A stretch of 64,000 nt of DNA from Fusobacterium sp. IOR10 (GTDB lineage Bacteria; Fusobacteriota; Fusobacteriia; Fusobacteriales; Fusobacteriaceae). The stretch spans positions 1 through 64,000 of the forward strand of contig NZ_WJWY01000005.1 in assembly GCF_010367435.1 (NCBI RefSeq). The letters are read 5' to 3'. Below, piece after piece: positions 25,102 through 41,417 of this stretch (positions within the stretch are counted from its first letter, which is position 1; the number at the start of each line of letters is the position of its first letter). A model generated the notes under the pieces. That model was not told the DNA's origin and did no database searches. It saw only the letters and a list, made by a program, of their open reading frames with translations. The position numbers and the translations under genes were made by a program.

Positions 25102-25893
25102 TTATGCAGCAAATACGCTTTTATCGTCTAACTGCCCCTTTGCATTTTGGAATTTTTCTAATAATTTTTCTGTTGTTAAATTTTGTTTTTCTGTTCCTGA
25201 AACATTTAAAATTATACGACCCTCATGAAGCATAATAAGCCTGTCCCCATAAGTAATTGCATCTTCTAAATTATGAGTTATCATTAGAGCTGTAATGTTA
25301 TTTTTTCTAACTATCTCATCTGTTTTATCTAAAATTATTCTAGATGTTTTAGGATCAAGAGCTGCTGTATGCTCATCTAGCAACAATAATTTTGGTTTGT
25401 TTAAAGTTACCATTAAAAGAGCTAAACACTGTCTTTGCCCCCCTGATAATAATCCAACCTCTGTATCCAATTGTTTTTCTATTCCTAGATCCAATTCCTC
25501 TAAAAGTTTTTTATATATATTTTTTCTCTTGTGGTTTAAACCAATTGTAAAATTAAACTTTTTACCCTTATTGTCAGCCATTGATAAATTTTCAAAAACT
25601 GTCATAGAAGGAGCAGTTCCAACCTTAGGATCTTGGTAAACCTTAGATATGAAATTATTTTTTTTATAGAATTTTAAATTTGTTATGTCTTTATCTTCTA
25701 AACACACATTTCCACAGTCTGGTTCTATACTTCCCATTATTAGATTCAAAAGAGTTGACTTTCCAGCTCCATTACTTCCTATTACTGTTATGAACTCACC
25801 TTTGTTTATTTCTAAGTTTAAATTATTGAAAACTTTCTTCCTTGTACCTAACTCAGATACGAAAGTTTTAGTTATAGAATTTAATTTAAGCAT
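25102..25893 (-). CDS. ABC transporter ATP-binding protein (COG1101-type)
   Basis: 263 aa; Walker A GSNGAGKST, signature LSGGQRQ, Walker B LLLLDEHTAALD. Confidence 0.85.
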   Translation of the reverse strand: MLKLNSITKTFVSELGTRKKVFNNLNLEINKGEFITVIGSNGAGKSTLLNLIMGSIEPDCGNVCLEDKDITNLKFYKKNNFISKVYQDPKVGTAPSMTVFENLSMADNKGKKFNFTIGLNHKRKNIYKKLLEELDLGIEKQLDTEVGLLSGGQRQCLALLMVTLNKPKLLLLDEHTAALDPKTSRIILDKTDEIVRKNNITALMITHNLEDAITYGDRLIMLHEGRIILNVSGTEKQNLTTEKLLEKFQNAKGQLDDKSVFAA

Positions 25894-26734
25894 TCTTGAT
25901 CCCCCCTTTTTTCAACATTTTATTATTTTTCAAAGCTAAAATTACAACTACTATAATTGCAGATATTAATTTTAAATCACTTGCATTGAATCCAATTTTT
26001 AAAGCTAAAGTTATTATTATTTTATAAATAATAGTTCCAACTATAACTGTTGTAGTTAATGTAAATTTTCTTCTATTTTTTATTATTGTTTCACCTATGA
26101 TAATTGAAGCTAAACCTGTTACTATTGTTCCAGTACCCATCCCAACATCTGCAAAGCCTTGATATTGAGCATATAGTCCACCTGACAAAGCAACTATTCC
26201 ATTGGATATTACTAATCCATATATTTTCAATTTACTTTTATCTACACCTAAAGTTTCAACTAAAGTTTCATTGTCCCCTAGGGCCTTTAATATAAATCCA
26301 AATTTTGTTTTAAATAAAAAGTCCAAAGATAATTTACATAAAATTACAATTATACTTATTAGTAATAGTTTATTAATATGTAAAGTAAACAAATGATTCA
26401 CTGTGAATAAAGAAATATTAGATCTACCCATTATTTTTATATTAATACTGTAAAGACCTGTCATTACTATTATCCCAGCAAGTAAGTTTGCTATTTTATA
26501 TTTAACATTTATATATCCTGTTATAAATCCTGCTATGCTTCCACCAACTACAGCTAGTAACAAAGCTAATACTGGATTCATTCCTTTTACTAAACAACTT
26601 GCAACTATTGATGCTCCTAGTGGAAAACTTCCGTCAACTGTCATATCAGGAAAGTCTAATATCCTAAAGGATATATATACACCCATAACCATTATTGCAA
26701 ATATTAAGCTCTGTTCTAAAGTACCAATTAACAT
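25886..26734 (-). CDS. ABC transporter permease (COG4120-type)
   Basis: 282 aa polytopic permease overlapping the ATPase start by 8 bp. Confidence 0.7.
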   Translation of the reverse strand: MLIGTLEQSLIFAIMVMGVYISFRILDFPDMTVDGSFPLGASIVASCLVKGMNPVLALLLAVVGGSIAGFITGYINVKYKIANLLAGIIVMTGLYSINIKIMGRSNISLFTVNHLFTLHINKLLLISIIVILCKLSLDFLFKTKFGFILKALGDNETLVETLGVDKSKLKIYGLVISNGIVALSGGLYAQYQGFADVGMGTGTIVTGLASIIIGETIIKNRRKFTLTTTVIVGTIIYKIIITLALKIGFNASDLKLISAIIVVVILALKNNKMLKKGGIKNA

Positions 26735-26774: not shown

Positions 26775-27722
26775 TTAGTTCAGCTGGAAATTAATGTTTA
26801 ATCTTTCTGCCACTTCTTTGTTTATTAATAATTTTGTATCCCTTTGTGTTTCAATTGGAATATCCTTAGGATTTTCTCCATTTAATACTCTTACTGCAAT
26901 TTCCCCTGTTTGATATCCTAATTGTTTGTAATCTAATGTTTCTGTAGCTAGGGCTCCTTGGATAACTTGATCTTCTATACAACCTATAACTGGTACATTT
27001 GCCTCATTTGCCTTTGATAAAACTAAAGGTGTTGCAGCAACAATTAAATTATCTGTTGGAGTATAAAGTACATCAACATCTTTTAACAAAACATCTAGGG
27101 CTTGACCAACTTCATTTACACTTGTTACTCCCTTTTCAACAACTTTGTATCCATATTTTTCACTTTCAACTTTTAATTTTTTAACTAAAATTTGAGAATT
27201 TTCTTCACTTGTGTTATATACAACTCCTATTCTTTTAGTATTTGGAAGCAAAGCTTTTATTAGCTCAACTTGCTTATTAACTGGAGCCATATCACTAGTT
27301 CCTGTTATGTTATCTCCAACTAAACCAACTGCAACTGGATCTGTTACTGCAGTTATTAATATTGGAATATCCTTTGTTGCATTAAATGCTGATTGAGCTG
27401 ATGGAGTTGATACAGCTAAGATCAAATCCTTTTTACTTTGAACAAAGTTTGAAGCTATAGTTTGAGCTATTCCAAAATCCCCTTGGGCATTTTGAGCTTC
27501 TATGTTTACCTTGTCTTCTGTATAGCCACCATCTTCTAGAGCTTCTTTAAATCCTGCAACTGTAGCATCTAAAGCTGGATGTTCAATTATTTGTGTTATT
27601 CCTATGTTTATTTTTTTATTATTAGTGGAACTTTCCTTTCCACATGCTGCTAATATCATAACTCCTAGTAAAGTTATTCCTATTTTCTTTATATTTTTCC
27701 TAATTATATTCATTATTATCAC
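26775..27722 (-). CDS. ABC transporter substrate-binding lipoprotein (COG2984 / ABC_sub_bind family), paralog 1
   Basis: 315 aa; lipobox LAAC; KINIGITQIIEHPALDA...ILAVSTP...TAVTDPVAVGLV, characteristic of the TrpX-like SBP family. Confidence 0.7.
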   Translation of the reverse strand: MIIMNIIRKNIKKIGITLLGVMILAACGKESSTNNKKINIGITQIIEHPALDATVAGFKEALEDGGYTEDKVNIEAQNAQGDFGIAQTIASNFVQSKKDLILAVSTPSAQSAFNATKDIPILITAVTDPVAVGLVGDNITGTSDMAPVNKQVELIKALLPNTKRIGVVYNTSEENSQILVKKLKVESEKYGYKVVEKGVTSVNEVGQALDVLLKDVDVLYTPTDNLIVAATPLVLSKANEANVPVIGCIEDQVIQGALATETLDYKQLGYQTGEIAVRVLNGENPKDIPIETQRDTKLLINKEVAERLNINFQLN

Positions 27723-27890
27723 CCCTAAAGATTTATTTTGTATGGAATAATGATACCATTGTTAGGGCATTATTTATAGATAACAATTTTTTTATTCTTT
27801 TGTTCTACTTTTTTTGATATTTTTTTAAAAATTACTTATTTACCAATAACTTTTTTTATTTATTGTTATTTTTGTTGTTCGTATATATCA

Positions 27891-28835
27891 TTAATTTAAT
27901 TCATCCATTAGTTCTTTTGGAATAATTACGTTAAATTTCTTAGCCATTTCTTTGTTTATCATTAGCTGTGTATCTTCTAAAGTTTCAATTGGCATATCAC
28001 TTATTTTTTCCCCATTTAAAACTTTAACTGCCATTTCCCCTGTTTGGTATCCTAAATTTCTAAAACTAAGAGCTTCTGTTGCCAAGGCTCCAGCTTTAAA
28101 TTGTGCTGCGTCTGATGTAATTATAGGAATATTTCTTTCTTCAGCTCTATTTGAAATTAAACTCATAGATGCAGTTATAACATTATCACTTGGTGTGTAT
28201 AGTACATCTATTTCACCTAATAAAACATCAACTGCTTGTCCTACTTCATTTATATTTGTTACACCCTTTTCAACAATTTCATAACCTAAAGGTTCTGCTA
28301 TACTTTTCATTTTCTTTAAAAGTACTCTTGAATTTTCTTCACTTGTATTATATAAGAAACCTATTTTCTTAGCTTTAGGAAGTAAAGTCTTCATTAGAGC
28401 AACTTGTTTTTCCATTGGTGGCATATCACTAGTTCCTGTTATGTTATCCCCAACTAAACCAACTGCAACTGGATCTGTTACTGCAGTTATTAATATTGGA
28501 ATATCCTTTGTTGCATTAAATACTGATTGAGCTGATGGAGTTGATACAGCTAAGATCAAATCCTTTTTACTTTGAACAAAGTTTGAAGCTATAGTTTGAG
28601 CCACTCCAAAGTCCCCTTGGGCATTTTGAATTTCTATGTTTACTTTGTCTTCTGTATAGCCCCCATCTTCTAGAGCTTCTCTAAATCCTACAACTGCAGC
28701 ATCTAAAGCTGGATGTTCGATTATTTGTGTTATTCCTATATTTATTTTTTTCTTATTTGCAGCTTCTTTTTTTCCACATCCAAAAATAAACAAACTTGCT
28801 ATTATTAACATTGATATTTTTTTCATATTGTTCAT
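27891..28835 (-). CDS. ABC transporter substrate-binding lipoprotein (COG2984 family), paralog 2
   Basis: 314 aa; lipobox IFGC. The N-terminal approx. 145 aa is over 90% identical to paralog 1 (DNA nearly identical 27290-27620 vs 28430-28760), while the C-terminal half diverges. Confidence 0.7.
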   Translation of the reverse strand: MNNMKKISMLIIASLFIFGCGKKEAANKKKINIGITQIIEHPALDAAVVGFREALEDGGYTEDKVNIEIQNAQGDFGVAQTIASNFVQSKKDLILAVSTPSAQSVFNATKDIPILITAVTDPVAVGLVGDNITGTSDMPPMEKQVALMKTLLPKAKKIGFLYNTSEENSRVLLKKMKSIAEPLGYEIVEKGVTNINEVGQAVDVLLGEIDVLYTPSDNVITASMSLISNRAEERNIPIITSDAAQFKAGALATEALSFRNLGYQTGEMAVKVLNGEKISDMPIETLEDTQLMINKEMAKKFNVIIPKELMDELN

Positions 28836-30503: not shown

Positions 30504-30572
30504 TGAAGGTTGACTTTTAAATAATTTAGTCGTATATTTAAGGTATAATGTAGTTAAAGGAGGAAGATAGAT

Positions 30573-30920
30573 ATGGCACAATATCATGAAGTTAATTTAA
30601 GTAGCAAAGTTAAAGATCAAGCTAGAGCTCTTAACAGTTTAAAAGAAGAAATTGAAGCTATTGACTGGTATAATCAAAGGGCAGATGTCTGCGGTGATAC
30701 TGAATTGAAATCCATTTTAGAACACAACAGAGATGAGGAAACAGAACACGCTGTAATGCTATTTGAATGGTTAAGGAGAAATATGCCTGCATTTGAAAAG
30801 GAAGCTGCAGACTATCTATTTACCAAGGGATCTCTTTTGGATTTAGAGTCACAAGCTGATGCTAAGGAAGAAGAACCAAAGGAAGAAAAGGAAGATTCTG
30901 ATAATATTTTTTTAAAGTAA
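30573..30920 (+). CDS. Encapsulated ferritin-like protein (EncFtn-type cargo) with acidic C-terminal tail
   Basis: 115 aa; EEIEAIDWYNQRA...EETEHAVM supplies a Glu/Glu/His (ExxH) di-iron site on a short helical protein. GSLLDLES near the C-terminus resembles an encapsulin targeting peptide. Ends 6 bp before the encapsulin gene. Confidence 0.6.
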   Translation: MAQYHEVNLSSKVKDQARALNSLKEEIEAIDWYNQRADVCGDTELKSILEHNRDEETEHAVMLFEWLRRNMPAFEKEAADYLFTKGSLLDLESQADAKEEEPKEEKEDSDNIFLK

Positions 30921-30926
30921 AGGAGA

Positions 30927-31706
30927 GTGTTTATGAATAATCTAAATAAAAATATGGCCCCAATATCTGATAAAGCTTGGGAAGTTTTAAATGAAAGAAC
31001 AAAGGAAATTTTATTAAAAGTTATCTCTGCTAGAAAATTTATGAGTATTAAAAATGTAGGTGATTCAAAGGGAATATTTACAGGAAAAATAAATATAAAA
31101 AAAGCAAATGATACAGAATATGGAGTTTACCATGTGTTGCCATTAATTGAAACTAGATTTAACTTTACTTTAAACAGATGGGAACTTGATAATCTAAATA
31201 GAGGAGATACTAATATAGATTTAGATAATCTTGATAAGGCAGTATTTGAATCTGGTAAATTTGAAGAAGAATTAATATACAAGGGACTAGATAATATTAA
31301 AGGATTGCTTGATTCTTGTAATAATCCTCCAATGAAAATAGGAGACACTCCAAAGGAAATTTTAACAAATATATCCAAAGCTATTATAGTACTTAAGGAT
31401 AAATACAGTTCTGACACTTTGGACTTAGTAGTTAACTATGATACTTGGGTTAAATTAAATTCCATAGAAAGTCATATTCCCCTTGTAAAAAGAATAAAAG
31501 AACTTATACAAGGAGATATTATAATAAGTAAGTTTATTCCAAAAACAATTTTAATTCCACATAAAAATGAGAATTTTGAAATTTCTGTGGGAAATGATTT
31601 TTCAATAGGTTACCAAAATCACACAAGTAGAGAAGTTACTTTATTTATAACTGAAAGTCTTGTGTTTAGAATCTTAGATAAGGATTTGTTCATTATCTTA
31701 GAATAA
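30927..31706 (+). CDS. Family 1 encapsulin nanocompartment shell protein (linocin M18-like)
   Basis: 259 aa; aligns by eye along its whole length with T. maritima encapsulin (APISDKAWEVLNERTKEI... ; ...LPLIETRFNFTLNRWELDNLNRGDTNIDL... ; ...DFSIGYQNHTSREVTLFITESLVFRIL). Confidence 0.85.
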   Translation: MFMNNLNKNMAPISDKAWEVLNERTKEILLKVISARKFMSIKNVGDSKGIFTGKINIKKANDTEYGVYHVLPLIETRFNFTLNRWELDNLNRGDTNIDLDNLDKAVFESGKFEEELIYKGLDNIKGLLDSCNNPPMKIGDTPKEILTNISKAIIVLKDKYSSDTLDLVVNYDTWVKLNSIESHIPLVKRIKELIQGDIIISKFIPKTILIPHKNENFEISVGNDFSIGYQNHTSREVTLFITESLVFRILDKDLFIILE

Positions 31707-31724
31707 TAATAAATAATATTAAAA

Positions 31725-31753
31725 TTAAAAATGCCGTTTAACGGCATTTTTAA
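31725..31753. terminator. Bidirectional Rho-independent terminator
   Basis: aaaaatgccgtt-ta-aacggcattttt between convergent encapsulin and phoU genes. Confidence 0.6.
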
Positions 31754-32433
31754 TTTTCCTTTTCTAATAATTCCTTTTTCCTTAAATTTTCACCCTTTAA
31801 AATATATACTAAATCTATAACCAAATGAATAATATGATCTGCAAATCTTTCATATTTTTTTGTAAGTATAACACCCTTTATAAGGCTATCTATATTATCA
31901 TTATTTTCCCTCATACAATTACCCATTTCACTCATTATCCTATTAGCTTCCCTATTAATTTTTTCATCAGCAACTATTAGTTCATAGAGTAAAGTTTCAT
32001 TTCCATTTATAAAAGAAGAAATATAAACCTCGTAAACATTTTTTATTTCCTTAATATATGGACACAGTACCCTATTAACATCCTCTGCTAACTGGGGAGA
32101 TTCCTCATTTATTTCCTTTAATATTTTAATATTCTTTTTTAAAATATCTCCCATTCTTTCAATTAACCTTCCCCCGTCAATTAACATAACTAATTCCCTT
32201 AAATTTTTTGCAGCTGGTTGAAATCTAGCTATGGCTATTATTGAATTTTCCTTTAAACTAACTTCAAAGGCATTTATAATATCTTCCACAACTAAACACT
32301 CTCCATATAAACTAGATATATTTTTTCCCCCTTGAACCATCTCTATGTTTATATCTAACATCCTATTTAAATTTTTTAACATTTCCAAATAATGCTCATT
32401 TAAATTTTTTAAATTTTCTTGCAGATTCTTCAT
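31750..32433 (-). CDS. phoU: PhoU-family phosphate signalling regulator
   Basis: 227 aa; two PhoU repeats (...LIERMGDILKKNI... and ...ERFADHIIHLV...). Last gene of the pst operon. Confidence 0.75.
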   Translation of the reverse strand: MKNLQENLKNLNEHYLEMLKNLNRMLDINIEMVQGGKNISSLYGECLVVEDIINAFEVSLKENSIIAIARFQPAAKNLRELVMLIDGGRLIERMGDILKKNIKILKEINEESPQLAEDVNRVLCPYIKEIKNVYEVYISSFINGNETLLYELIVADEKINREANRIMSEMGNCMRENNDNIDSLIKGVILTKKYERFADHIIHLVIDLVYILKGENLRKKELLEKEN

Positions 32434-32454
32434 ATTTCTCCTCCTAATTATTTA

Positions 32455-33204
32455 TCAAAATTTTCCTGTAATATAGTCCTCTGTTTTTTTGTTATTTGGT
32501 GCTGTGAATATTATTTCTGTTTTATCAAACTCCTCTAAATTCCCTTGATAGAAAAATCCTGTATATTCTGATATTCTTGAAGCTTGTTGCATATTGTGAG
32601 TTACAATAACTATTGTATAATCCTTAGATAACTTTCTAATTAACTCCTCTATTTTTGTTGTGGATATTGGATCTAAGGCTGAAGTTGGCTCATCCATTAA
32701 TAAAATCTCTGGTTTAATTGATATTGCCCTTGCTATACAAAGTCTTTGTTGTTGACCCCCTGATAATTTCAATGCAGATTCATGTAGCTTATCCTTAACC
32801 TCATCCCACAGGGCAACCTCTTTAAGGGAATTTTCCACAATTTCATCTAAAACCTTCTTATTTTTTTCCCCATGAAGAATAGGTGCGTAAGTTATATTTT
32901 CATATATACTCTTTGGAAATGGATTTGGTTTTTGAAATACCATTCCAACTTTTTTCCTAAGTTCTGTTACATTAAAATCCCTGTCTAAAATGTTTTCCCT
33001 GTCTAAAAATATTTTTCCCTCATATTTAATATCTAAAATAAGGTCATTCATTCTATTAATAGACCTTAAAAATGTTGATTTCCCACAACCTGAAGGACCA
33101 ATTAAAGCTGTAACTTTTTTTTCTTGTATCTTCATACTTATATCCTTTATTGCTTGAAACTTTCCATAATAAAAATTAAAGTTTTCTATTGTTATTCTAT
33201 CCAT
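32455..33204 (-). CDS. pstB: Phosphate ABC transporter ATP-binding protein
   Basis: 249 aa; the [25 protein letters not shown]-terminus is diagnostic of PstB; Walker [18 protein letters not shown]. Confidence 0.9.
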
Positions 33205-33205
33205 T

Positions 33206-34054
33206 TTATTCTCCTTTATTTTTATAAATATTTCTAATAAATGCCCCTAACAAATTAAATCCAACTGTTATAAACACAAGTACAAACAAGGTTCCATACA
33301 TATTTGAAAGGGGCATGTTTGGTACTTGAGTTGAAATTACAAATAAATGATATGGTAGAGCCATTACCTTATCTAGCACTCCAGTTGGTAGGAAAGGAAA
33401 ATAAAAGGCAACTGCTGTAAACATTATTGGAGCAGTTTCCCCTGCTGCCCTTGAAATACTAAGTATTATCCCTGTTAAAATTCCAGGACTTGCTGCTGGT
33501 AAAACAACTTTCATTGTTGTTTCCCATTTAGTTGCACCTAGTGCTAGGGATGCTTCCCTTAAACTATTTGGAACATTTAATAGAGCCTCTCTCACTGCAG
33601 TTATAATAACTGGCAAGCACATTATTCCAAGAGTTAAAGATCCTGATAAAATAGATGATCCAAAGTTTAAAAAGATTACAAATAGGGCCATTCCAAAAAG
33701 ACCATATATTATACTTGGAATTCCAGCTAAATTAATAATTGTTAAATTTATAAATCTTTTAAGTAAACTTTCCCTAGCATATTCAACTAAATATATACCT
33801 GTAAATATCCCAAAGGGAACAGCAAATATAATTGTTCCAAGGGTTAAATATATAGTTCCAACTATTGCAGGAAATATTCCCCCTTCCCTCATTCCATTTG
33901 TTGGCATACTAAATATAAAATCAAAGTTAATAGCTGACACACCCTTTACAGTAATAAAGAAAAGAATTAATATTACTGGAACTATTGAAAGTAACCCAAT
34001 AGCATTTATAAACACTTTAAAAACTTTTTCCCCTGTATCCTTTATAATTATCAT
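33206..34054 (-). CDS. pstA: Phosphate ABC transporter permease PstA
   Basis: 282 aa permease with an EAA-like loop (...[20 protein letters not shown]...). Confidence 0.85.
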
Positions 34055-34079
34055 ATTTACCTCACTTTTTAATAGATGT

Positions 34080-34958
34080 CTAATTTCTTAATTTTCTAGA
34101 TTTTGTAACATAATGTTCTGCTAAAGTATTTGTAATAAAACTTATTATAAATAGCACAATTCCAATTGCAAATAAAGCATAGTAGTGGGAACTATCTTTA
34201 ACTACTTCTCCCATTTCTGCTGCAATTGTCGCTGTTAAAGTTCTAACAGATGACAGGGGACTTTTTGCTATTATTGGAGCGTTTCCTGTAATCATTAAAA
34301 CAGTTAGTGTTTCTCCAACTATCCTACCAAAGCCAAGCATTATACCTGCAAGTATTCCTGGAAAGGCAGCTGGAACTAAAACATTAAATATAGTTTCTGT
34401 TTTACTTGCTCCAAGGGCAAGAGATGCCTCTTTATAGGAAATATCATTGGCATTTAAAGAATCTTCAGTCATTGAAACTATTGTGGGAAAGGCCATGAAA
34501 GCAAGCATTATCCCCCCTGTTAAAGCAGTTAAACCACTGTTTAGGGAAAACATTCTCTTTATAGGACCAGATAAAATATACAGTCCTATGAAACCTAGTA
34601 CAACAGATGGTATAGCTGACATAACTTCTATTATTATTTTCATCATTGATTTAATCCTTTTGGGAGCATACTCTGCAATATATATAGCTATTAGTATTCC
34701 AAGGGGCACTGAAATTATAACTGCAATAATAGTTACCCAAAAAGTTCCTACTAATAATGGAATAAAACCAAACTTACCTGAAAGGGATATCCAGCTTCTT
34801 CCAAATAAAAAATCAGATACACTATAACCTGTAAAAAATTTTGATCCATTAATAAATATAAATAAAAACATTGCAAATATTATTACAATATTTAATATTC
34901 CCATTCCCAAAAGGAATTTTTTCATGATCTTATCCTTTAACCTTCTTATTTCATTCAT
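34080..34958 (-). CDS. pstC: Phosphate ABC transporter permease PstC
   Basis: 292 aa permease (...[20 protein letters not shown]...). Confidence 0.85.
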   Translation of the reverse strand: MNEIRRLKDKIMKKFLLGMGILNIVIIFAMFLFIFINGSKFFTGYSVSDFLFGRSWISLSGKFGFIPLLVGTFWVTIIAVIISVPLGILIAIYIAEYAPKRIKSMMKIIIEVMSAIPSVVLGFIGLYILSGPIKRMFSLNSGLTALTGGIMLAFMAFPTIVSMTEDSLNANDISYKEASLALGASKTETIFNVLVPAAFPGILAGIMLGFGRIVGETLTVLMITGNAPIIAKSPLSSVRTLTATIAAEMGEVVKDSSHYYALFAIGIVLFIISFITNTLAEHYVTKSRKLRN

Positions 34959-35146
34959 TTTTCACCTCTACATTATTTTATATTTTATTTACGTCATTAT
35001 ATATCTCCTTTGTTAATTTAATATTAACCTAATGTAAATTTTGTGTTAAATGTTATTTACATAAACTTTACTCTATTTTCATAGGCTTTTAACAAGAAAA
35101 TATTATAGTTGTAATATGAAAAACAAAATATAACTTAGGAGGAAAT

Positions 35147-35995
35147 ATGAAAATTAAAAAAAGAAATTTATTAGGTGTTTGCTTAGTTATGGGAGCATTA
35201 GTTACAGGGTGTGGAGGAAAAAAATCAACAATTATAGAATTAAAGGGATCTGATACAATACTTAATGTATCACAAGGAATAGCTGAAAAATATATGAAAA
35301 CTCATCCTAATACTAAGATAGCAGTTACTGGTGGAGGATCTGGAGTTGGAATATCAGCATTACTTAATAAAACAACTGATATAGCAATGGCATCTAGAAG
35401 TATGAAAGGTAAAGAGTATGACCAAGCAAAGAAGGAAAATTTAAACATTAAAGAAATTGTTCTTGCATATGATGGAATAACAGTAATAGTAAATAATGAT
35501 AATCCTATTAAAGAAATTGATTCAAAGGAACTTGGGGAAATATTTAGAGGAGAAATTACAAACTGGAAGGATGTTGGAGGAAATGACAGTCCAATAGTAG
35601 TTTTATCTAGAGACTCTTCATCTGGAACTCATGAATTCTTTAAGGAACATATTATAAGAGAAGGTAAGAAAAACAGTATGGAATATGGGCCTAAAACTTT
35701 ATATGCACCTTCTAACCAAGCTATTAAACAAGAAGTAAAAAGTAATGGAAATGCAATTGGTTACATAGGTATGGGTTACATGGATACTACAGTTCACTCT
35801 TTAGCAGTTGATGGAATAACTCCATCTGTTAAAAATGTTTCTAATAAATCATATCCAATAGCTAGAGCAGTATACTGGTATGTACCTACAGCTTCAGATA
35901 AAGAAACTGAAATTAATGAACTTGTTGATTTTGCAACTTCTAAGGATGGACAAGAAATTGTGAAAAAAGAAGGATTTATACCTAAGGGATTATAA
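35147..35995 (+). CDS. pstS: Phosphate ABC transporter substrate-binding lipoprotein
   Basis: 282 aa; lipobox VTGC; GSDT...TGGGSGVG...SRDSSSGT motifs of PstS/PBP. Confidence 0.85.
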   Translation: MKIKKRNLLGVCLVMGALVTGCGGKKSTIIELKGSDTILNVSQGIAEKYMKTHPNTKIAVTGGGSGVGISALLNKTTDIAMASRSMKGKEYDQAKKENLNIKEIVLAYDGITVIVNNDNPIKEIDSKELGEIFRGEITNWKDVGGNDSPIVVLSRDSSSGTHEFFKEHIIREGKKNSMEYGPKTLYAPSNQAIKQEVKSNGNAIGYIGMGYMDTTVHSLAVDGITPSVKNVSNKSYPIARAVYWYVPTASDKETEINELVDFATSKDGQEIVKKEGFIPKGL

Positions 35996-36036
35996 TCTTG
36001 TGGTATAATTAAAGAAAAAAACAAGGAGACTTTCTT

Positions 36037-36714
36037 ATGAAAATACTAATTATTGAGGATGACTTGGAAATACAAAATTTAATATATTACTTTTTAAAAA
36101 AGGAAAACTTCCAAGTTGATAAAACATCAAATGGACTAGAAGGATTGAAATTATTAAAGGACAATCATTATGATGCTATAATTTTGGATTTAATGATCCC
36201 TGGAATAGATGGAACTAATTTTACTAAAATAATAAAAACACTTCCAGAGGATTATGGTCATCCTAAAATAATTATGGTAACTGCTAAAACTGACATTGAT
36301 GATGTTTTAACAGGTCTTGAAATAGGAGCTGATGATTACCTAAAAAAACCATTTGACCCTAGAGAGCTAGTACTTAGAACAAAGAAACTCCTTAAATCAG
36401 CTGATGATCATTTAAATGACAATATTATATTTAAGGATATTGTTATTAAATCAAAGGAACATATTGTTATTTCTGAGGAACATGAAATAGAGCTTTCTAA
36501 AAAAGAATATGATTTACTTAGTTTTCTTATACAAAATAAAAATTTAGTTATAACAAGGGAAAAAATATTAGATAATATTTGGAAAAGTAATTATTACCCT
36601 GGGGATAGAACTGTTGATGTTTACATTTCTAAACTCAGGGATAAACTTCCTACTTTTTCAAAATACATAAAAACTGTGAAAGGAGTTGGTTATAAATTAG
36701 AAGAAAAGAAATAA
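36037..36714 (+). CDS. OmpR/PhoB-family response regulator
   Basis: 225 aa; receiver domain (MKILIIEDD...DAIILDLMIPG) plus winged-helix effector domain. Adjacent to pst. Confidence 0.85.
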   Translation: MKILIIEDDLEIQNLIYYFLKKENFQVDKTSNGLEGLKLLKDNHYDAIILDLMIPGIDGTNFTKIIKTLPEDYGHPKIIMVTAKTDIDDVLTGLEIGADDYLKKPFDPRELVLRTKKLLKSADDHLNDNIIFKDIVIKSKEHIVISEEHEIELSKKEYDLLSFLIQNKNLVITREKILDNIWKSNYYPGDRTVDVYISKLRDKLPTFSKYIKTVKGVGYKLEEKK

Positions 36715-38381
36715 TTACATTAATTGTCATTTTATTTTTACAACTGATTTTTGTTTTTTTTAATTCTGAAATTTTATCCAATCTCTATAAAAATATTGAA
36801 AAACAAAATTTACAAAAGGATGCTTTTCTTATAAAAACAATTGCTGAAAAAAATCCCTATGAAAGTTATACTAGCTTATTTAATAAATCTAAAATTCGTT
36901 TCACCCTTATAAATAATGAGGGAACTGTAATTTATGATTCTAAAAACAAAGACAATGAACATTTTATGGATAATCACAGAAACAGAGAAGAAATAAAAGA
37001 AGCTATCACCCTAGGAGAAGGATTTTCCATTAGAAAAAGCAAAACCCTAGGTTTAAACTATGCCTATTACGCCCTTAGATTTAAAAATATTAATAATGAA
37101 TTCTATATTTTAAGAACCTCAGGGGACTATAGCAAACAGCTGTATCAACTGAAACTATTTTCAGGAATATTAATAATATTTTTCCTTATTTTAAATTTTT
37201 CAGTTCATTTTTTCTATAAGAACTATATTAAAAGGGATTTCTACAATAAAATAAATAAAATGAAAACTTTTTTAATACACGGGGAAAAACTAAATTCAAA
37301 AACATTAAAGGATGAAGCTTGGCTACTTGAATTTTGGAATGTATTAAAGGAATGGCAGCATATAAATTTGGAAAATATAGCAAGCTTGGACATTGAAAGA
37401 AAGATTTTAAATAATGTTATTACATCTGTGGATTCCTTCATTGGATTAATTGATGAAAATGGTGATTTTATTATTAAAAATGACTCTCTAGATTATTTAA
37501 TATTAAAGGGGAAGGATAAGTATTTAGAAGCTGTTAAGTACATTGAAATTGTTAATATTATAAAGGAAAGTTTAAGCACAAAGAAAAACATTTCAAAGGA
37601 AGTATACATTCTTCCTATTAAAGAATACTTTATTGTATCTGTTAAAAATATTAAAAATGAAAATAGATTTTTAATTACTATAAAAAATATAACCAAAACA
37701 AAAAAGACAATTGAATTTCAAAAGAAGTTCATTAATAATGTTGGACATGAATTAAAAACCCCTTTAACAAATATAAAGGGATATTTAATAGCCCTAGAGG
37801 ATGCACCTGAAAACATGAAGGGGGAATTTTTAGAAACTGTTAATCACAATGTTAATAAATTGGAAAACATTATTTCTGATTTCTTAAATATATCTAAAAT
37901 TGAAAATTATCCCTCTTTAAATTTAAGGGTTTTTTCTGTTGAAGATTTGGAAAAGTCCCTTAGGAAATCATTGCACATGATAATACTAAATAAAAATGCA
38001 AAGGTTTCATTTAATGTCCAAAACGGCTTAATTAATATTGTAAGTGACTTTGAGAAACTTAATACTATTTTAAAAAATCTAGTGGAAAACAGCATTCTAT
38101 ACAATAATTCTAAAATTCCACACAGTGAAATATTCCTAAAAGAAAGTTATACTCACTATGTACTTGAAATAAAAGATAATGGTATTGGAATACCTAGAAA
38201 TAAATTAAATAAAATATTTGATAGATTCTACAGGGTTGATAAGGCTAGAACCACTAATTTAGGTGGAACTGGTCTTGGCCTTTCAATAGTTAAGGCTCTT
38301 GTTGAACAATTAAATGGTGAAATTTCTGTAATATCTGAGGAAAATAAAGGATCCACATTTAAAATAGAAATAAAAAAATAA
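36714..38381 (+). CDS. PhoR-like sensor histidine kinase (start codon uncertain; the frame is open from the response-regulator stop)
   Basis: The track calls M at 36966, but the same frame is open back to 36696 and encodes TM1 (ITLIVILFLQLIFVFF), a sensor domain and TM2 before that Met. H-box NVGHELKTPL, then the N, G1 (DNGIGIP) and G2 (GGTGLGLSIV) boxes. No ATG/GTG/TTG lies upstream, so it must use ATT/ATA/CTG or contain a sequencing frameshift. Confidence 0.7.
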   Translation: MTLIVILFLQLIFVFFNSEILSNLYKNIEKQNLQKDAFLIKTIAEKNPYESYTSLFNKSKIRFTLINNEGTVIYDSKNKDNEHFMDNHRNREEIKEAITLGEGFSIRKSKTLGLNYAYYALRFKNINNEFYILRTSGDYSKQLYQLKLFSGILIIFFLILNFSVHFFYKNYIKRDFYNKINKMKTFLIHGEKLNSKTLKDEAWLLEFWNVLKEWQHINLENIASLDIERKILNNVITSVDSFIGLIDENGDFIIKNDSLDYLILKGKDKYLEAVKYIEIVNIIKESLSTKKNISKEVYILPIKEYFIVSVKNIKNENRFLITIKNITKTKKTIEFQKKFINNVGHELKTPLTNIKGYLIALEDAPENMKGEFLETVNHNVNKLENIISDFLNISKIENYPSLNLRVFSVEDLEKSLRKSLHMIILNKNAKVSFNVQNGLINIVSDFEKLNTILKNLVENSILYNNSKIPHSEIFLKESYTHYVLEIKDNGIGIPRNKLNKIFDRFYRVDKARTTNLGGTGLGLSIVKALVEQLNGEISVISEENKGSTFKIEIKK

Positions 38382-39161: not shown

Positions 39162-39803
39162 CTAAAATTCTTTCCCACCTGTTACTTTCTTATCTTGATC
39201 ATTTTCATATAGTCCTTTAATTGCAGCTTCTAACCCTCTAACCACAGTGTTTAAATCCATAGATGGTGTATCTTTTTTATCTAATACTTGTTCTAAAATA
39301 AATGGAACATGAATGAATCCACCTTTTTTTACTAGGGAAGATTTTTCTATATTGTATAGTAACCCATACATTACATGATTACATACAAATGTCCCTGCTG
39401 TATTTGAAATTGAAGCTGGTATATTATTTTTTTTAATTTCTTCAACCATTGCCTTTATTGGAAGACTTGCAAAATATGCATTTTTTCCACCAGGATATAC
39501 AGGTTCATCTATTGGTTGATTTCCTTTGTTATCCTTTATTCTAGCATCGTCTAAATTAATTGCAACTCTTTCAACTGTTATATCGTATCTTCCCCCTGCT
39601 TGTCCAACACATAGAACAACATCTGGTTTATATTCCTTTATTCCTTCTAAAACCTTATTTATAGATTCTTTAAAAACTGTAGGAATTTGAAGTTTTATAA
39701 CTTCCACACCTTCTATTTTTGATGGTAAAAGTTTTACTGCCTCCCAAGCTGGGTTTATTTTTTCATTTCCAAATGGATCAAATCCTGTAATAAGTAATTT
39801 CAT
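39162..39803 (-). CDS. pcp: Pyroglutamyl-peptidase I (pyrrolidone-carboxylate peptidase)
   Basis: 213 aa; MKLLITGFDPFGNEKINPAWEAV..., catalytic region ...GTFVCNHVMY.... Confidence 0.9.
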   Translation of the reverse strand: MKLLITGFDPFGNEKINPAWEAVKLLPSKIEGVEVIKLQIPTVFKESINKVLEGIKEYKPDVVLCVGQAGGRYDITVERVAINLDDARIKDNKGNQPIDEPVYPGGKNAYFASLPIKAMVEEIKKNNIPASISNTAGTFVCNHVMYGLLYNIEKSSLVKKGGFIHVPFILEQVLDKKDTPSMDLNTVVRGLEAAIKGLYENDQDKKVTGGKEF

Positions 39804-39812
39804 TTTTCCTCC

Positions 39813-40727
39813 TTAAAATGCCCAAAAATACATAAGTACAATGTGAATAAACAATAGAGCTATTGCAACTGGTGCCTGTGCTATTATAACTCCATTTTTA
39901 TTTTTCATTTCCATAATTGCTGTAGGAACTATATTAAAATTAGCTCCCATTGGTGTTAATAATGTTCCACAATATCCTGCTGTAAGACCTAGGGAACCTG
40001 CAATTGCTGGATTTGCCCCTTGGGAAAAAACAAATGGCAATCCTATACCTGCTGTAATAACAGCAAAGGCAGCAAAGGCATTTCCCATAATCATAGTAAA
40101 TACAGCCATTCCAACGCAATAAATTATAACCCCTGCTAGAATATTCCCCTCAGGAACTATTGAGCTCATTAAATTAGCTATAACCTCTCCAACACCTGAT
40201 AGGGTAAACAATGCTCCAAGGGCAGCTAAAAGTTGTGGAAGTATTGTTGATGGACCCATTTGTTGTAACATTCTAGAACTTTCATAACCTAAATATTTTG
40301 GATGTTCCTTTGTAACTACCAAGGAAAGAATCAAAGCCACTAGAGATCCTACTCCTAGTCCAACTAATCCACCTAAACTAGTAAACTGAGCAACAGCAAA
40401 GGCACTTACCCCAATTGATAAAGCTGGAATAAACAACCTATTTCCTATAATTTCACTTTTTTTAGCTCTATATTCACTGGTAGAATTTTCTTGAGATCCA
40501 ACTCCTACCTTATTAAAAACTGTTAATAATCCCATAAGTATTAGTAACAACCCAACAATATAAGAGGGAATCATTTTTCCTACAATGAAAATAAATCCAA
40601 ATATAATCCAAAATGCCCCTGTACCAAATTTCTTTTTATGCTCTTTATCAGCTAGGGCATAGGCCCCTGCACATATTGCCACTAAACCTGTTAATATATA
40701 CATAATTTCAAGAATTGTATTTTTCAT
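39813..40727 (-). CDS. DUF979-family membrane protein (pcp-associated)
   Basis: 304 aa polytopic protein, 10 bp upstream of pcp on the same strand. Confidence 0.55.
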   Translation of the reverse strand: MKNTILEIMYILTGLVAICAGAYALADKEHKKKFGTGAFWIIFGFIFIVGKMIPSYIVGLLLILMGLLTVFNKVGVGSQENSTSEYRAKKSEIIGNRLFIPALSIGVSAFAVAQFTSLGGLVGLGVGSLVALILSLVVTKEHPKYLGYESSRMLQQMGPSTILPQLLAALGALFTLSGVGEVIANLMSSIVPEGNILAGVIIYCVGMAVFTMIMGNAFAAFAVITAGIGLPFVFSQGANPAIAGSLGLTAGYCGTLLTPMGANFNIVPTAIMEMKNKNGVIIAQAPVAIALLFIHIVLMYFWAF

Positions 40728-40730
40728 ATT

Positions 40731-41417
40731 TTATCCTCCAATTTCAACTTTTTTTTCTCTCTTAGCTAATTTTTTTTCTAAAAAATGATTTTGTATTGCA
40801 GAAAAAATAACTGCCAATATACTAATTGGAATAGCTGCCTTGGAAACTGCATAGGGTGCTACTTTTATTCCTAATTCTTGAAGAGTTCCAACTATTAACA
40901 ATACCCCTGCACTGGCTACAAATACATTTTGTCCAAAAAAGTTTCCATAATTTTCTATAGCACAGGCAACACCTTTAATTTCTTCTTTTTCATTTTGAGA
41001 TAATTCTCCATGCTTCTTTTCCCCAGCTCCTATGGCCATTGGATAAACAAGTGGTCTTATAAACTGTATATGTCCTCCTAACCTAAGGGATAATACTGCT
41101 AAAAATGTTCTTATAATCATATATGAACTTAGAACTTTCCCACATGTTACAGAGTGCAATTTCCCAATACATTTAGAAGCTTGTTCCTTTAGTCCATTTC
41201 TTTCTAATATTCCTATAACTGCAAGGGTTAAAAGAAATACTGTCATATACCTTGTTTTAACAAAGGCATCTCCAAGTGTTGATAAAATATCAATAAAATC
41301 AATTCCAGAAACTAAACCTGTAGCAATTCCAGCAACAATAACAACAGCTATTGTGTCCAATTTTAATAGGAATCCTATAATTATAATAATAACTCCTATA
41401 AGTTTTAATGTGACCAT
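40731..41417 (-). CDS. DUF969-family membrane protein (pcp-associated)
   Basis: 228 aa membrane protein, first gene of the DUF969-DUF979-pcp triplet. Confidence 0.55.
   Translation of the reverse strand: MVTLKLIGVIIIIIGFLLKLDTIAVVIVAGIATGLVSGIDFIDILSTLGDAFVKTRYMTVFLLTLAVIGILERNGLKEQASKCIGKLHSVTCGKVLSSYMIIRTFLAVLSLRLGGHIQFIRPLVYPMAIGAGEKKHGELSQNEKEEIKGVACAIENYGNFFGQNVFVASAGVLLIVGTLQELGIKVAPYAVSKAAIPISILAVIFSAIQNHFLEKKLAKREKKVEIGG

Follow-up and report, generated by a model that had tools for sequence, protein, structure and literature searches.

This study concerns two adjacent genes at positions 30573–31706 on the forward strand of a 64,000-nucleotide stretch of DNA from Fusobacterium sp. 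IOR10 (contig NZ_WJWY01000005.1, positions 1 to 64,000; G+C content 30%), which we call the window. The first gene encodes a ferritin-like cargo and the second an encapsulin shell protein, and we consider it very likely that together they form a classical Family 1 encapsulin nanocompartment for iron storage, in which the cargo is docked by a terminal peptide. An earlier reading of the letters alone (the original prediction) had proposed a cargo resembling encapsulated ferritin (EncFtn) coupled to a Family 1 shell of the Thermotoga maritima type, a proposal that is fully borne out by sequence, predicted fold, catalytic residues and genomic context. Thousands of Family 1 operons with ferritin-like protein (FLP) cargo have been catalogued, and the operon described here adds one more lineage to them, in a phylum where such systems are rare and unstudied. 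Its weight for basic biology is small and its practical value modest. The only mildly new feature is the terminal peptide of the cargo, which is without the canonical Gly hinge.

In the proposed mechanism, the 115-amino acid (aa) EncFtn protein would assemble into the annular decamer typical of the family, and di-iron ferroxidase centres at its dimer interfaces (E26, E56 and H59) would oxidize Fe(II). The last eight residues of the cargo, DSDNIFLK, carried on a disordered acidic linker of about 15 residues, would dock in a luminal hydrophobic cleft of the shell protomer during assembly. The 257-aa shell protein, predicted to have the HK97 fold, would build a T. maritima-like T=1 60-mer. Fe(III) mineral may then build up inside the shell, apart from the cytoplasm, and an oxygen-sensitive anaerobe could gain both an iron reserve and protection from iron-/oxidant-driven damage.

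The ferritin cargo and the shell

The cargo gene occupies 30573–30920 (+ strand) and encodes 115 aa as read from the window. Its catalytic domain, residues 1–92 (30573–30848, + strand), ends in the conserved YLFTKGSLLDLE and was delimited from family profiles, matches in the PDB, and an AlphaFold2 (AF2) model searched with Foldseek. The profile match is to Pfam PF22277 (EncFtn-like), with an E-value of 5.6e-37 and 125.8 bits over a cutoff of 27. The PDB matches are to NE0167 (3k6c, 4.7e-28), the EncFtn of Haliangium ochraceum (5n5f, 1.5e-24) and that of Rhodospirillum rubrum (5da5, 4.7e-22). In the alignment with the R. rubrum protein (query 11–94 against chain 17–100), the ferroxidase ligands E32, E62 and H65, whose role was shown through mutagenesis (PMC11202242), fall on E26, E56 and H59. 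The Glu/Glu-x-x-His di-iron signature that had been noticed in this open reading frame (ORF) is thus where it should be. The same alignment pairs E25, E28, W32 and Y33 with the entry-site/accessory residues E31, E34, W38 and Y39, and all seven of these cargo positions (E25, E26, E28, W32, Y33, E56 and H59) are invariant in a 50-sequence alignment of homologues.

Structure prediction had been put forward as a check for both ORFs, and both models agree with the proposed families. The AF2 model of the cargo (predicted local distance difference test score, pLDDT, of 81.7) has helices at residues 11–39, 43–70 and 72–82; that is, two long antiparallel helices followed by a short third one, the pattern of the EncFtn fold. 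Foldseek gives template-modelling scores (TMt) of 0.83–0.92 against the solved EncFtn structures 3k6c, 5da5 and 5n5f. Residues 101–115 fall below pLDDT 50. By sequence and predicted fold taken together, the cargo is a member of the EncFtn family.

The shell gene, 257 codons plus stop, is placed at 30933–31706 (+ strand) and was identified with hidden Markov models, the T. maritima encapsulin structure 3DKT and an AF2 model. It scores 185.1 bits over its full length against the NCBIfam equivalog NF041155 (encap_f1, ‘family 1 encapsulin nanocompartment shell protein’; cutoff 100), and 191.4 bits against Pfam PF04454 (Linocin_M18; E 2.2e-56, cutoff 24.3), again over the full length. The end-to-end match to T. 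maritima encapsulin that had been claimed for it is real: residues 5–258 align with 3–263 of 264 in 3DKT (E 1.4e-42). The AF2 shell model has a pLDDT of 91.1 and a predicted template-modelling score (pTM) of 0.85. Its 27 best Foldseek matches in the PDB are all T=1 Family 1 encapsulins (TM 0.85–0.92; root-mean-square deviation, rmsd, 1.8–2.8 Å), while T=3 and T=4 shells follow after them at 4–8 Å. On sequence and model alike, the shell is a Family 1 encapsulin of the T. maritima type.

Encapsulins and phage capsids have the HK97 fold in common, and one relative of the shell (P0130) carries a weak precomputed match to PF09950 (Major_capside). These two points are what can be said for regarding the 257/259-aa protein as the remnant of a prophage capsid rather than as a cellular encapsulin. 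Yet the equivalog score lies far over its cutoff, and the top 50 structural matches of the shell model are all encapsulins or encapsulin-like particles, with no phage capsid among them. The gene immediately upstream of the shell encodes a dedicated cargo that carries a terminal peptide. Moreover, no phage genes (portal, terminase, protease or tail) occur within ~13 kb of the operon; the neighbours are housekeeping genes, in a synteny that is kept across species. The chance of a capsid remnant is negligible; the original prediction had called it unlikely.

The shell also carries a residue associated with flavin binding. W83 (codon at 31179–31181) aligns with the Trp that stacks on the flavin (FMN) in T. 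maritima, and all 14 of the closest shells share it. The T. maritima residue is numbered W87 in one paper (PMC8086157) and W90 in another (PMC8610991); since the segment contains a single Trp, we treat the two numbers as referring to one residue. Only ~10% of family members have a Trp at the flavin site (PMC8086157), and most of these are FLP-loaded shells from anaerobic hosts. Judging by W83, the encapsulin of the window is probably a flavoprotein as well, consistent with the published observation that shells with the flavin-binding Trp are mostly found in anaerobes.

The cargo C-terminus and its proposed docking

The original prediction had taken the segment GSLLDLES as the targeting segment of the cargo and had regarded the stretch behind it, counted as 25 residues (there are 22), as an unusual acidic, Lys-punctuated tail. 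Both points look different when the C-terminus is compared with those of the 120 best homologues of the cargo (counts of termini below are out of 121 and include the sequence from the window). A 12-residue motif, YLFTxGS(I/L)x(E/D)(L/I/V)E, is kept in essentially all 120 homologues, its final Glu in 115 of 117. Because this motif (YLFTxGSxxExE) is conserved throughout the family, GSLLDLE belongs, on this alignment, to the EncFtn domain as its conserved C-terminal end. Its counterpart in the H. ochraceum protein is residues 91–97 (...ERPILELE), which form the end of the truncated crystal construct 5n5f. The H. ochraceum localization sequence observed bound to the shell lies further downstream, at 117-GSLGIGSLR-125 (PMC8791618).

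What follows the domain is a linker and then a terminal peptide. The linker (residues 93–107, SQADAKEEEPKEEKE; 30849–30893, + strand) was recognized by its composition, low pLDDT and divergence within the clade. It is 15 aa long, with 47% D/E and a net charge of -4, near the family values taken from the homologues’ C-termini (median 14 aa, 33% D/E and -3.5). Flexible linkers of 10–20 aa (PMC7925596) and disordered EncFtn C-termini of 10–40 aa (PMC11202242) have been published. Read against these comparisons, the acidic Lys-punctuated stretch is the family’s normal flexible linker.

The putative targeting peptide, a variant with the sequence DSDNIFLK, covers residues 108–115 (30894–30917, + strand). 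It holds the position of the canonical hydrophobic-x-hydrophobic termini (e.g. LNIGDLK, DLGIGSLK and DLGLSKK), which are found in 99 of the 121 sequences. Eight sequences end in SD(N/D)IFLK, namely that of the window and P0001–P0007, which make up a Fusobacterium clade. Within this clade the domain and the last eight residues each have a mean pairwise identity of 0.89, against 0.26 for the linker, which also has indels; this is the pattern expected of a free tether and a constrained docking peptide. Position and conservation thus point to the last 7–8 residues of the cargo as the true targeting peptide.

The same data bear on whether GSLLDLES could nevertheless be an internal targeting segment, with the acidic tail as a new kind of functional appendage, one that might capture cations or nucleate mineral, for example. 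The segment is superficially like the G-S-L motifs of targeting peptides, and with nearly half of its residues acidic the tail could have a secondary role in attracting Fe(II). However, the 12-residue motif that contains GSLLDLES also occurs in homologues with canonical terminal peptides, and its H. ochraceum counterpart is kept in the crystal construct and is separate from the localization sequence. The linker, for its part, drifts in sequence and length even among close relatives, which is incompatible with a sequence-specific function. We regard an internal segment with such an appendage as very unlikely, and return to a terminal peptide on a flexible tether.

On the shell side, the luminal peptide site of the Klebsiella pneumoniae system comprises Arg34, Asp38, Asp229 and Ile230 (PMC10960027). 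The equivalents of the K. pneumoniae/T. maritima R34 and D229 (here R34 and D222) are invariant in the shell alignment and mark the predicted targeting-peptide site in the window. The Ile/Leu230 position is Phe. The Fusobacterium clade and the shell P0126 share a deletion of two residues that directly follows the first strand and adjoins the peptide site. This deletion was considered as evidence of co-evolution with the variant peptide and set aside, since it tracks the peptide only as a single clade, which is shared ancestry. Likewise, the idea that loss of the shell’s Asp38 tracks the variant peptide was rejected, as position 38 also varies where the cargo terminus is canonical.

Several points weigh against the nanocompartment reading. 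It draws on sequences and predicted structures. The T=1 shell is predicted from the closest matches of a monomer model, sequence similarity and shell length. The cargo scores 123.9 bits against NCBIfam TIGR04535 (‘encapsulin-associated ferritin-like protein’), about 1 bit short of the cutoff of 125, a shortfall for which its divergent C-terminus probably accounts. The shell of the window has Ser where K. pneumoniae and T. maritima have Asp38, the acidic residue that pairs with the terminal Lys. In addition, DSDNIFLK has neither the Gly hinge nor the L-x-I spacing of the canonical GxLGIxxL, and has a contiguous I-F-L instead. In the dye-decolorizing peroxidase (DyP) system of K. pneumoniae, a mutation in any one of the hydrophobic anchors, in the terminal Lys or in the inner Gly abolished loading (PMC10960027). 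Because the hinge and spacing that are essential in that system are missing here, we infer docking of DSDNIFLK from its position and conservation. The GxLGIxxL core is thus absent from the cargo, while the disordered extension and terminal Lys are present; this bears on the motif alone and leaves membership of the EncFtn family intact.

Taken at their strongest, these departures from the K. pneumoniae requirements would fit a decayed or decoupled system, in which the terminus has lost its ability to dock, EncFtn works unenclosed in the cytoplasm and the shell either stays empty or takes up some other cargo. Short EncFtn homologues that lack a targeting peptide are indeed known (s-FLPs, e.g. 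3k6c). On the other hand, the terminal eight residues are conserved like the catalytic domain, and unlike the linker, across species that are 72–97% identical, which argues for purifying selection on binding. In all relatives seen, the two genes remain closely linked and their reading frames are unbroken. None of the other ORFs of the 64-kb window bears a candidate targeting peptide, nor is there among them a second cargo with the same terminal motif. We consider decay very unlikely, and a cargo that docks by its terminus remains the preferred account.

How the variant peptide may have arisen is suggested by a relative. The cargo adjoining the shell P0126 (L003, 1–354), a shell 57% identical to that of the window, ends in ...SNSDLGNIFSK. 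The SDLGNIFSK of L003 is, from its sequence, an apparent intermediate between SDLGIGSLK and SD--NIFLK. The more distant shell relatives P0129, P0130 and P0132 are paired with the canonical termini LKIGDFK, LGIGKIK and LGIGEL. We tentatively suggest, as a possibility that we would not rate as probable, that the Gly-less SD-NIFLK evolved from SDLGIGSLK via a form like SDLGNIFSK and docks in a luminal site reshaped by the loss of Asp38, the change of Leu230 to Phe and the adjoining 2-residue deletion, its anchors set in a register unlike that of any structurally characterized Family 1 peptide. Such a peptide and shell would be orthogonal by nature to the T. maritima and consensus pairs. If true, docking of this separate, orthogonal kind would hold moderate interest, chiefly for engineering: DSDNIFLK and its shell could serve encapsulin engineering as a naturally orthogonal cargo-loading pair. 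As a natural experiment, the same pair could also show how strictly targeting peptides depend on the Gly hinge.

Related systems and earlier recognition

Among characterized systems, that of T. maritima (TM_0785; PDB 3DKT/7KQ5/7MU1; Flp/EncFtn cargo) resembles the operon in the order of cargo and shell and in its anaerobic host. Its shell is 264 aa long against 257 here, with ~32% identity over the end-to-end alignment; the fold of the predicted model agrees with it at a TM of 0.89–0.92 and an rmsd of 1.8–2.0 Å, and its Trp87 is kept as W83. In both cargos an acidic linker leads to a short terminal peptide in which Asp and Lys bracket a hydrophobic core. The peptides themselves differ: T. maritima has GGDLGIRKL, whereas DSDNIFLK is without a Gly hinge and has three hydrophobic residues in a row. 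The shells differ around the peptide site, where the window has Ser for Asp38, Phe for Leu230 and NVG--D for GPYGWE (the 2-residue deletion). T. maritima is also a hyperthermophile, whereas the host here is a mesophilic Fusobacterium.

The EncFtn domains of R. rubrum and H. ochraceum (PDB 5DA5, 5N5F and 7OE2) are ~46–49% identical to that of the window over the region aligned by Foldseek, with identical ferroxidase and entry-site residues. Their cargos have the same layout (domain, ...LE, acidic linker and terminal peptide), and their shells are T=1. They differ in having canonical localization sequences (GSLGIGSLR; core GxLGIxxL) and in their shells, which are ~25–28% identical to that of the window.

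An orthologous locus occurs in Fusobacterium sp. MFO224, whose cargo is 82% and shell 78% identical, with the same order of MatE, EncFtn, Enc and PhoU/PstBAC genes and a cargo ending in NSDNIFLK. For Fusobacterium sp. JB021 the comparison covers the shell, which is 80% identical. At the DNA level the operon is 80.6% identical to that of MFO224, 99.3–99.7% to three metagenome contigs and ~94.7% to two others. The window thus represents a different species-level lineage from MFO224 (~81% identity over the operon), with identities over 99% found only on metagenome contigs.

The original prediction had also stated that iron-storage nanocompartments are not generally recognized in Fusobacteriaceae-like anaerobes, and this proved incorrect. 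The 2021 encapsulin census of Andreas & Giessen counted 31 phyla with Family 1 systems and 23 bacterial phyla with Flp cargos (PMC8346489), and Fusobacterium sp. HMSC073F01 is among its supplementary entries, with an FLP cargo. The gene neighbourhood in HMSC073F01 differs from that in the window. At NCBI the MFO224 cargo is annotated as ‘encapsulin-associated ferritin-like protein’ and the shells of both MFO224 and JB021 as ‘family 1 encapsulin nanocompartment shell protein’. Among the papers covered by a full-text search, none discusses fusobacterial encapsulins in its text. They are unstudied, yet recognized in databases. A scan of the genome contigs gave two loci; a single-protein query of this kind reaches close relatives only and is uninformative on other Fusobacteriota. 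As to annotation, the Fusobacterium EncFtn clade could be under-annotated where TIGR04535 is used alone, though the cargo is an unambiguous EncFtn.

Operon signals and genomic neighbourhood

The shell ORF extends from a GTG at 30927 to 31706 (+ strand), 259 aa when counted from that codon, and contains an in-frame ATG at 30933. Its putative ribosome-binding site, GGAG (30922–30925, + strand), was read from the sequence and lies 7 nucleotides (nt) ahead of the ATG and 1 nt ahead of the GTG. T. maritima Met1 pairs with residue 3 of the 259-aa ORF. The shell is 257 aa in every metagenome gene call, and the MFO224 orthologue begins at the equivalent ATG. The start is most likely ATG 30933 rather than GTG 30927 because of the GGAG spacing, the alignment with T. 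maritima Met1 and these 257-aa calls. The intergenic gap between cargo and shell is therefore 12 bp, not 6 as had been reported.

Upstream of the cargo gene, a sigma-70-type promoter for the two genes is predicted at 30510–30538 (+ strand): TTGACT and TATATT, separated by a 17-nt spacer, agree with the consensus at 10 of 12 positions. MFO224 has the same two hexamers with a different spacer between them, so that the element is promoter-like by consensus match and conservation. The spacer holds a 5-1-5 palindrome, TAAATAATTTA, which was considered as a Fur/PerR-like operator and rejected, for it is not kept in MFO224. The cargo ribosome-binding site, AGGAGG (30558–30563, + strand), lies 9 nt ahead of the cargo ATG and is kept in MFO224. 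Downstream, a predicted intrinsic terminator hairpin at 31721–31757, with a 17-pair stem and T runs on each strand, would act in both directions and serve both the operon and the convergent phoU. By these sequence signals, cargo and shell form a self-contained two-gene operon, transcribed in one direction, with its own promoter and a shared bidirectional terminator. Scans of the whole 64-kb window with Rfam (at gathering thresholds) and for tRNA genes gave no match.

The position of the operon between a MATE pump and the pst/phoU phosphate genes, singled out earlier as unusual, is real. The placement is conserved in related Fusobacterium genomes, though not in other lineages; L005 and L006 are without these neighbours. 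Upstream lie a MatE transporter and then two paralogous ATP-binding cassette (ABC) substrate-binding proteins with a permease and an ATPase. Downstream, phoU and pstBAC lie on the opposite strand, with pstS and a two-component system beyond them, and further neighbours include genes for 2-oxoacid:ferredoxin oxidoreductase, a hydrolase and an antiporter. This full neighbourhood recurs in MFO224 and on several metagenome contigs. We claim no functional link between the pst/phoU adjacency and an iron-phosphate mineral; the adjacency is limited to this Fusobacterium group. One metagenome scaffold with the same locus, L008, appeared to lack the shell gene, a reading that was rejected because a 100-N scaffold gap (L008, 4092–4191) falls inside the gene and makes the absence an assembly artefact.

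Some minor observations concern the surroundings. A distant EncFtn-encapsulin pair (L004, 49–4700; shell 42% identical) also lies beside a MatE gene and an ABC protein with phosphonate-type binding domains; the likeness to the neighbourhood in the window could be due to chance or to remote synteny. The phosphate-uptake locus (31750–38381) is split into phoU-pstB-pstA-pstC (- strand) and a divergent pstS (+ strand); after pstS come an OmpR-type response regulator and a histidine kinase (PhoB/PhoR-like). A pyroglutamyl peptidase (PF01470) and DUF979/DUF969 membrane proteins, encoded at 39162–41417 (- strand), have no relation to the operon. Finally, the paralogous ABC substrate-binding proteins upstream are lipoprotein-like and encoded in tandem (PF04392; 315 and 314 aa; 26775–28835, - strand). 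The two are clearly alike, one permease and one ATPase (25102–26734) adjoin the pair, and the duplication is present in MFO224 too.

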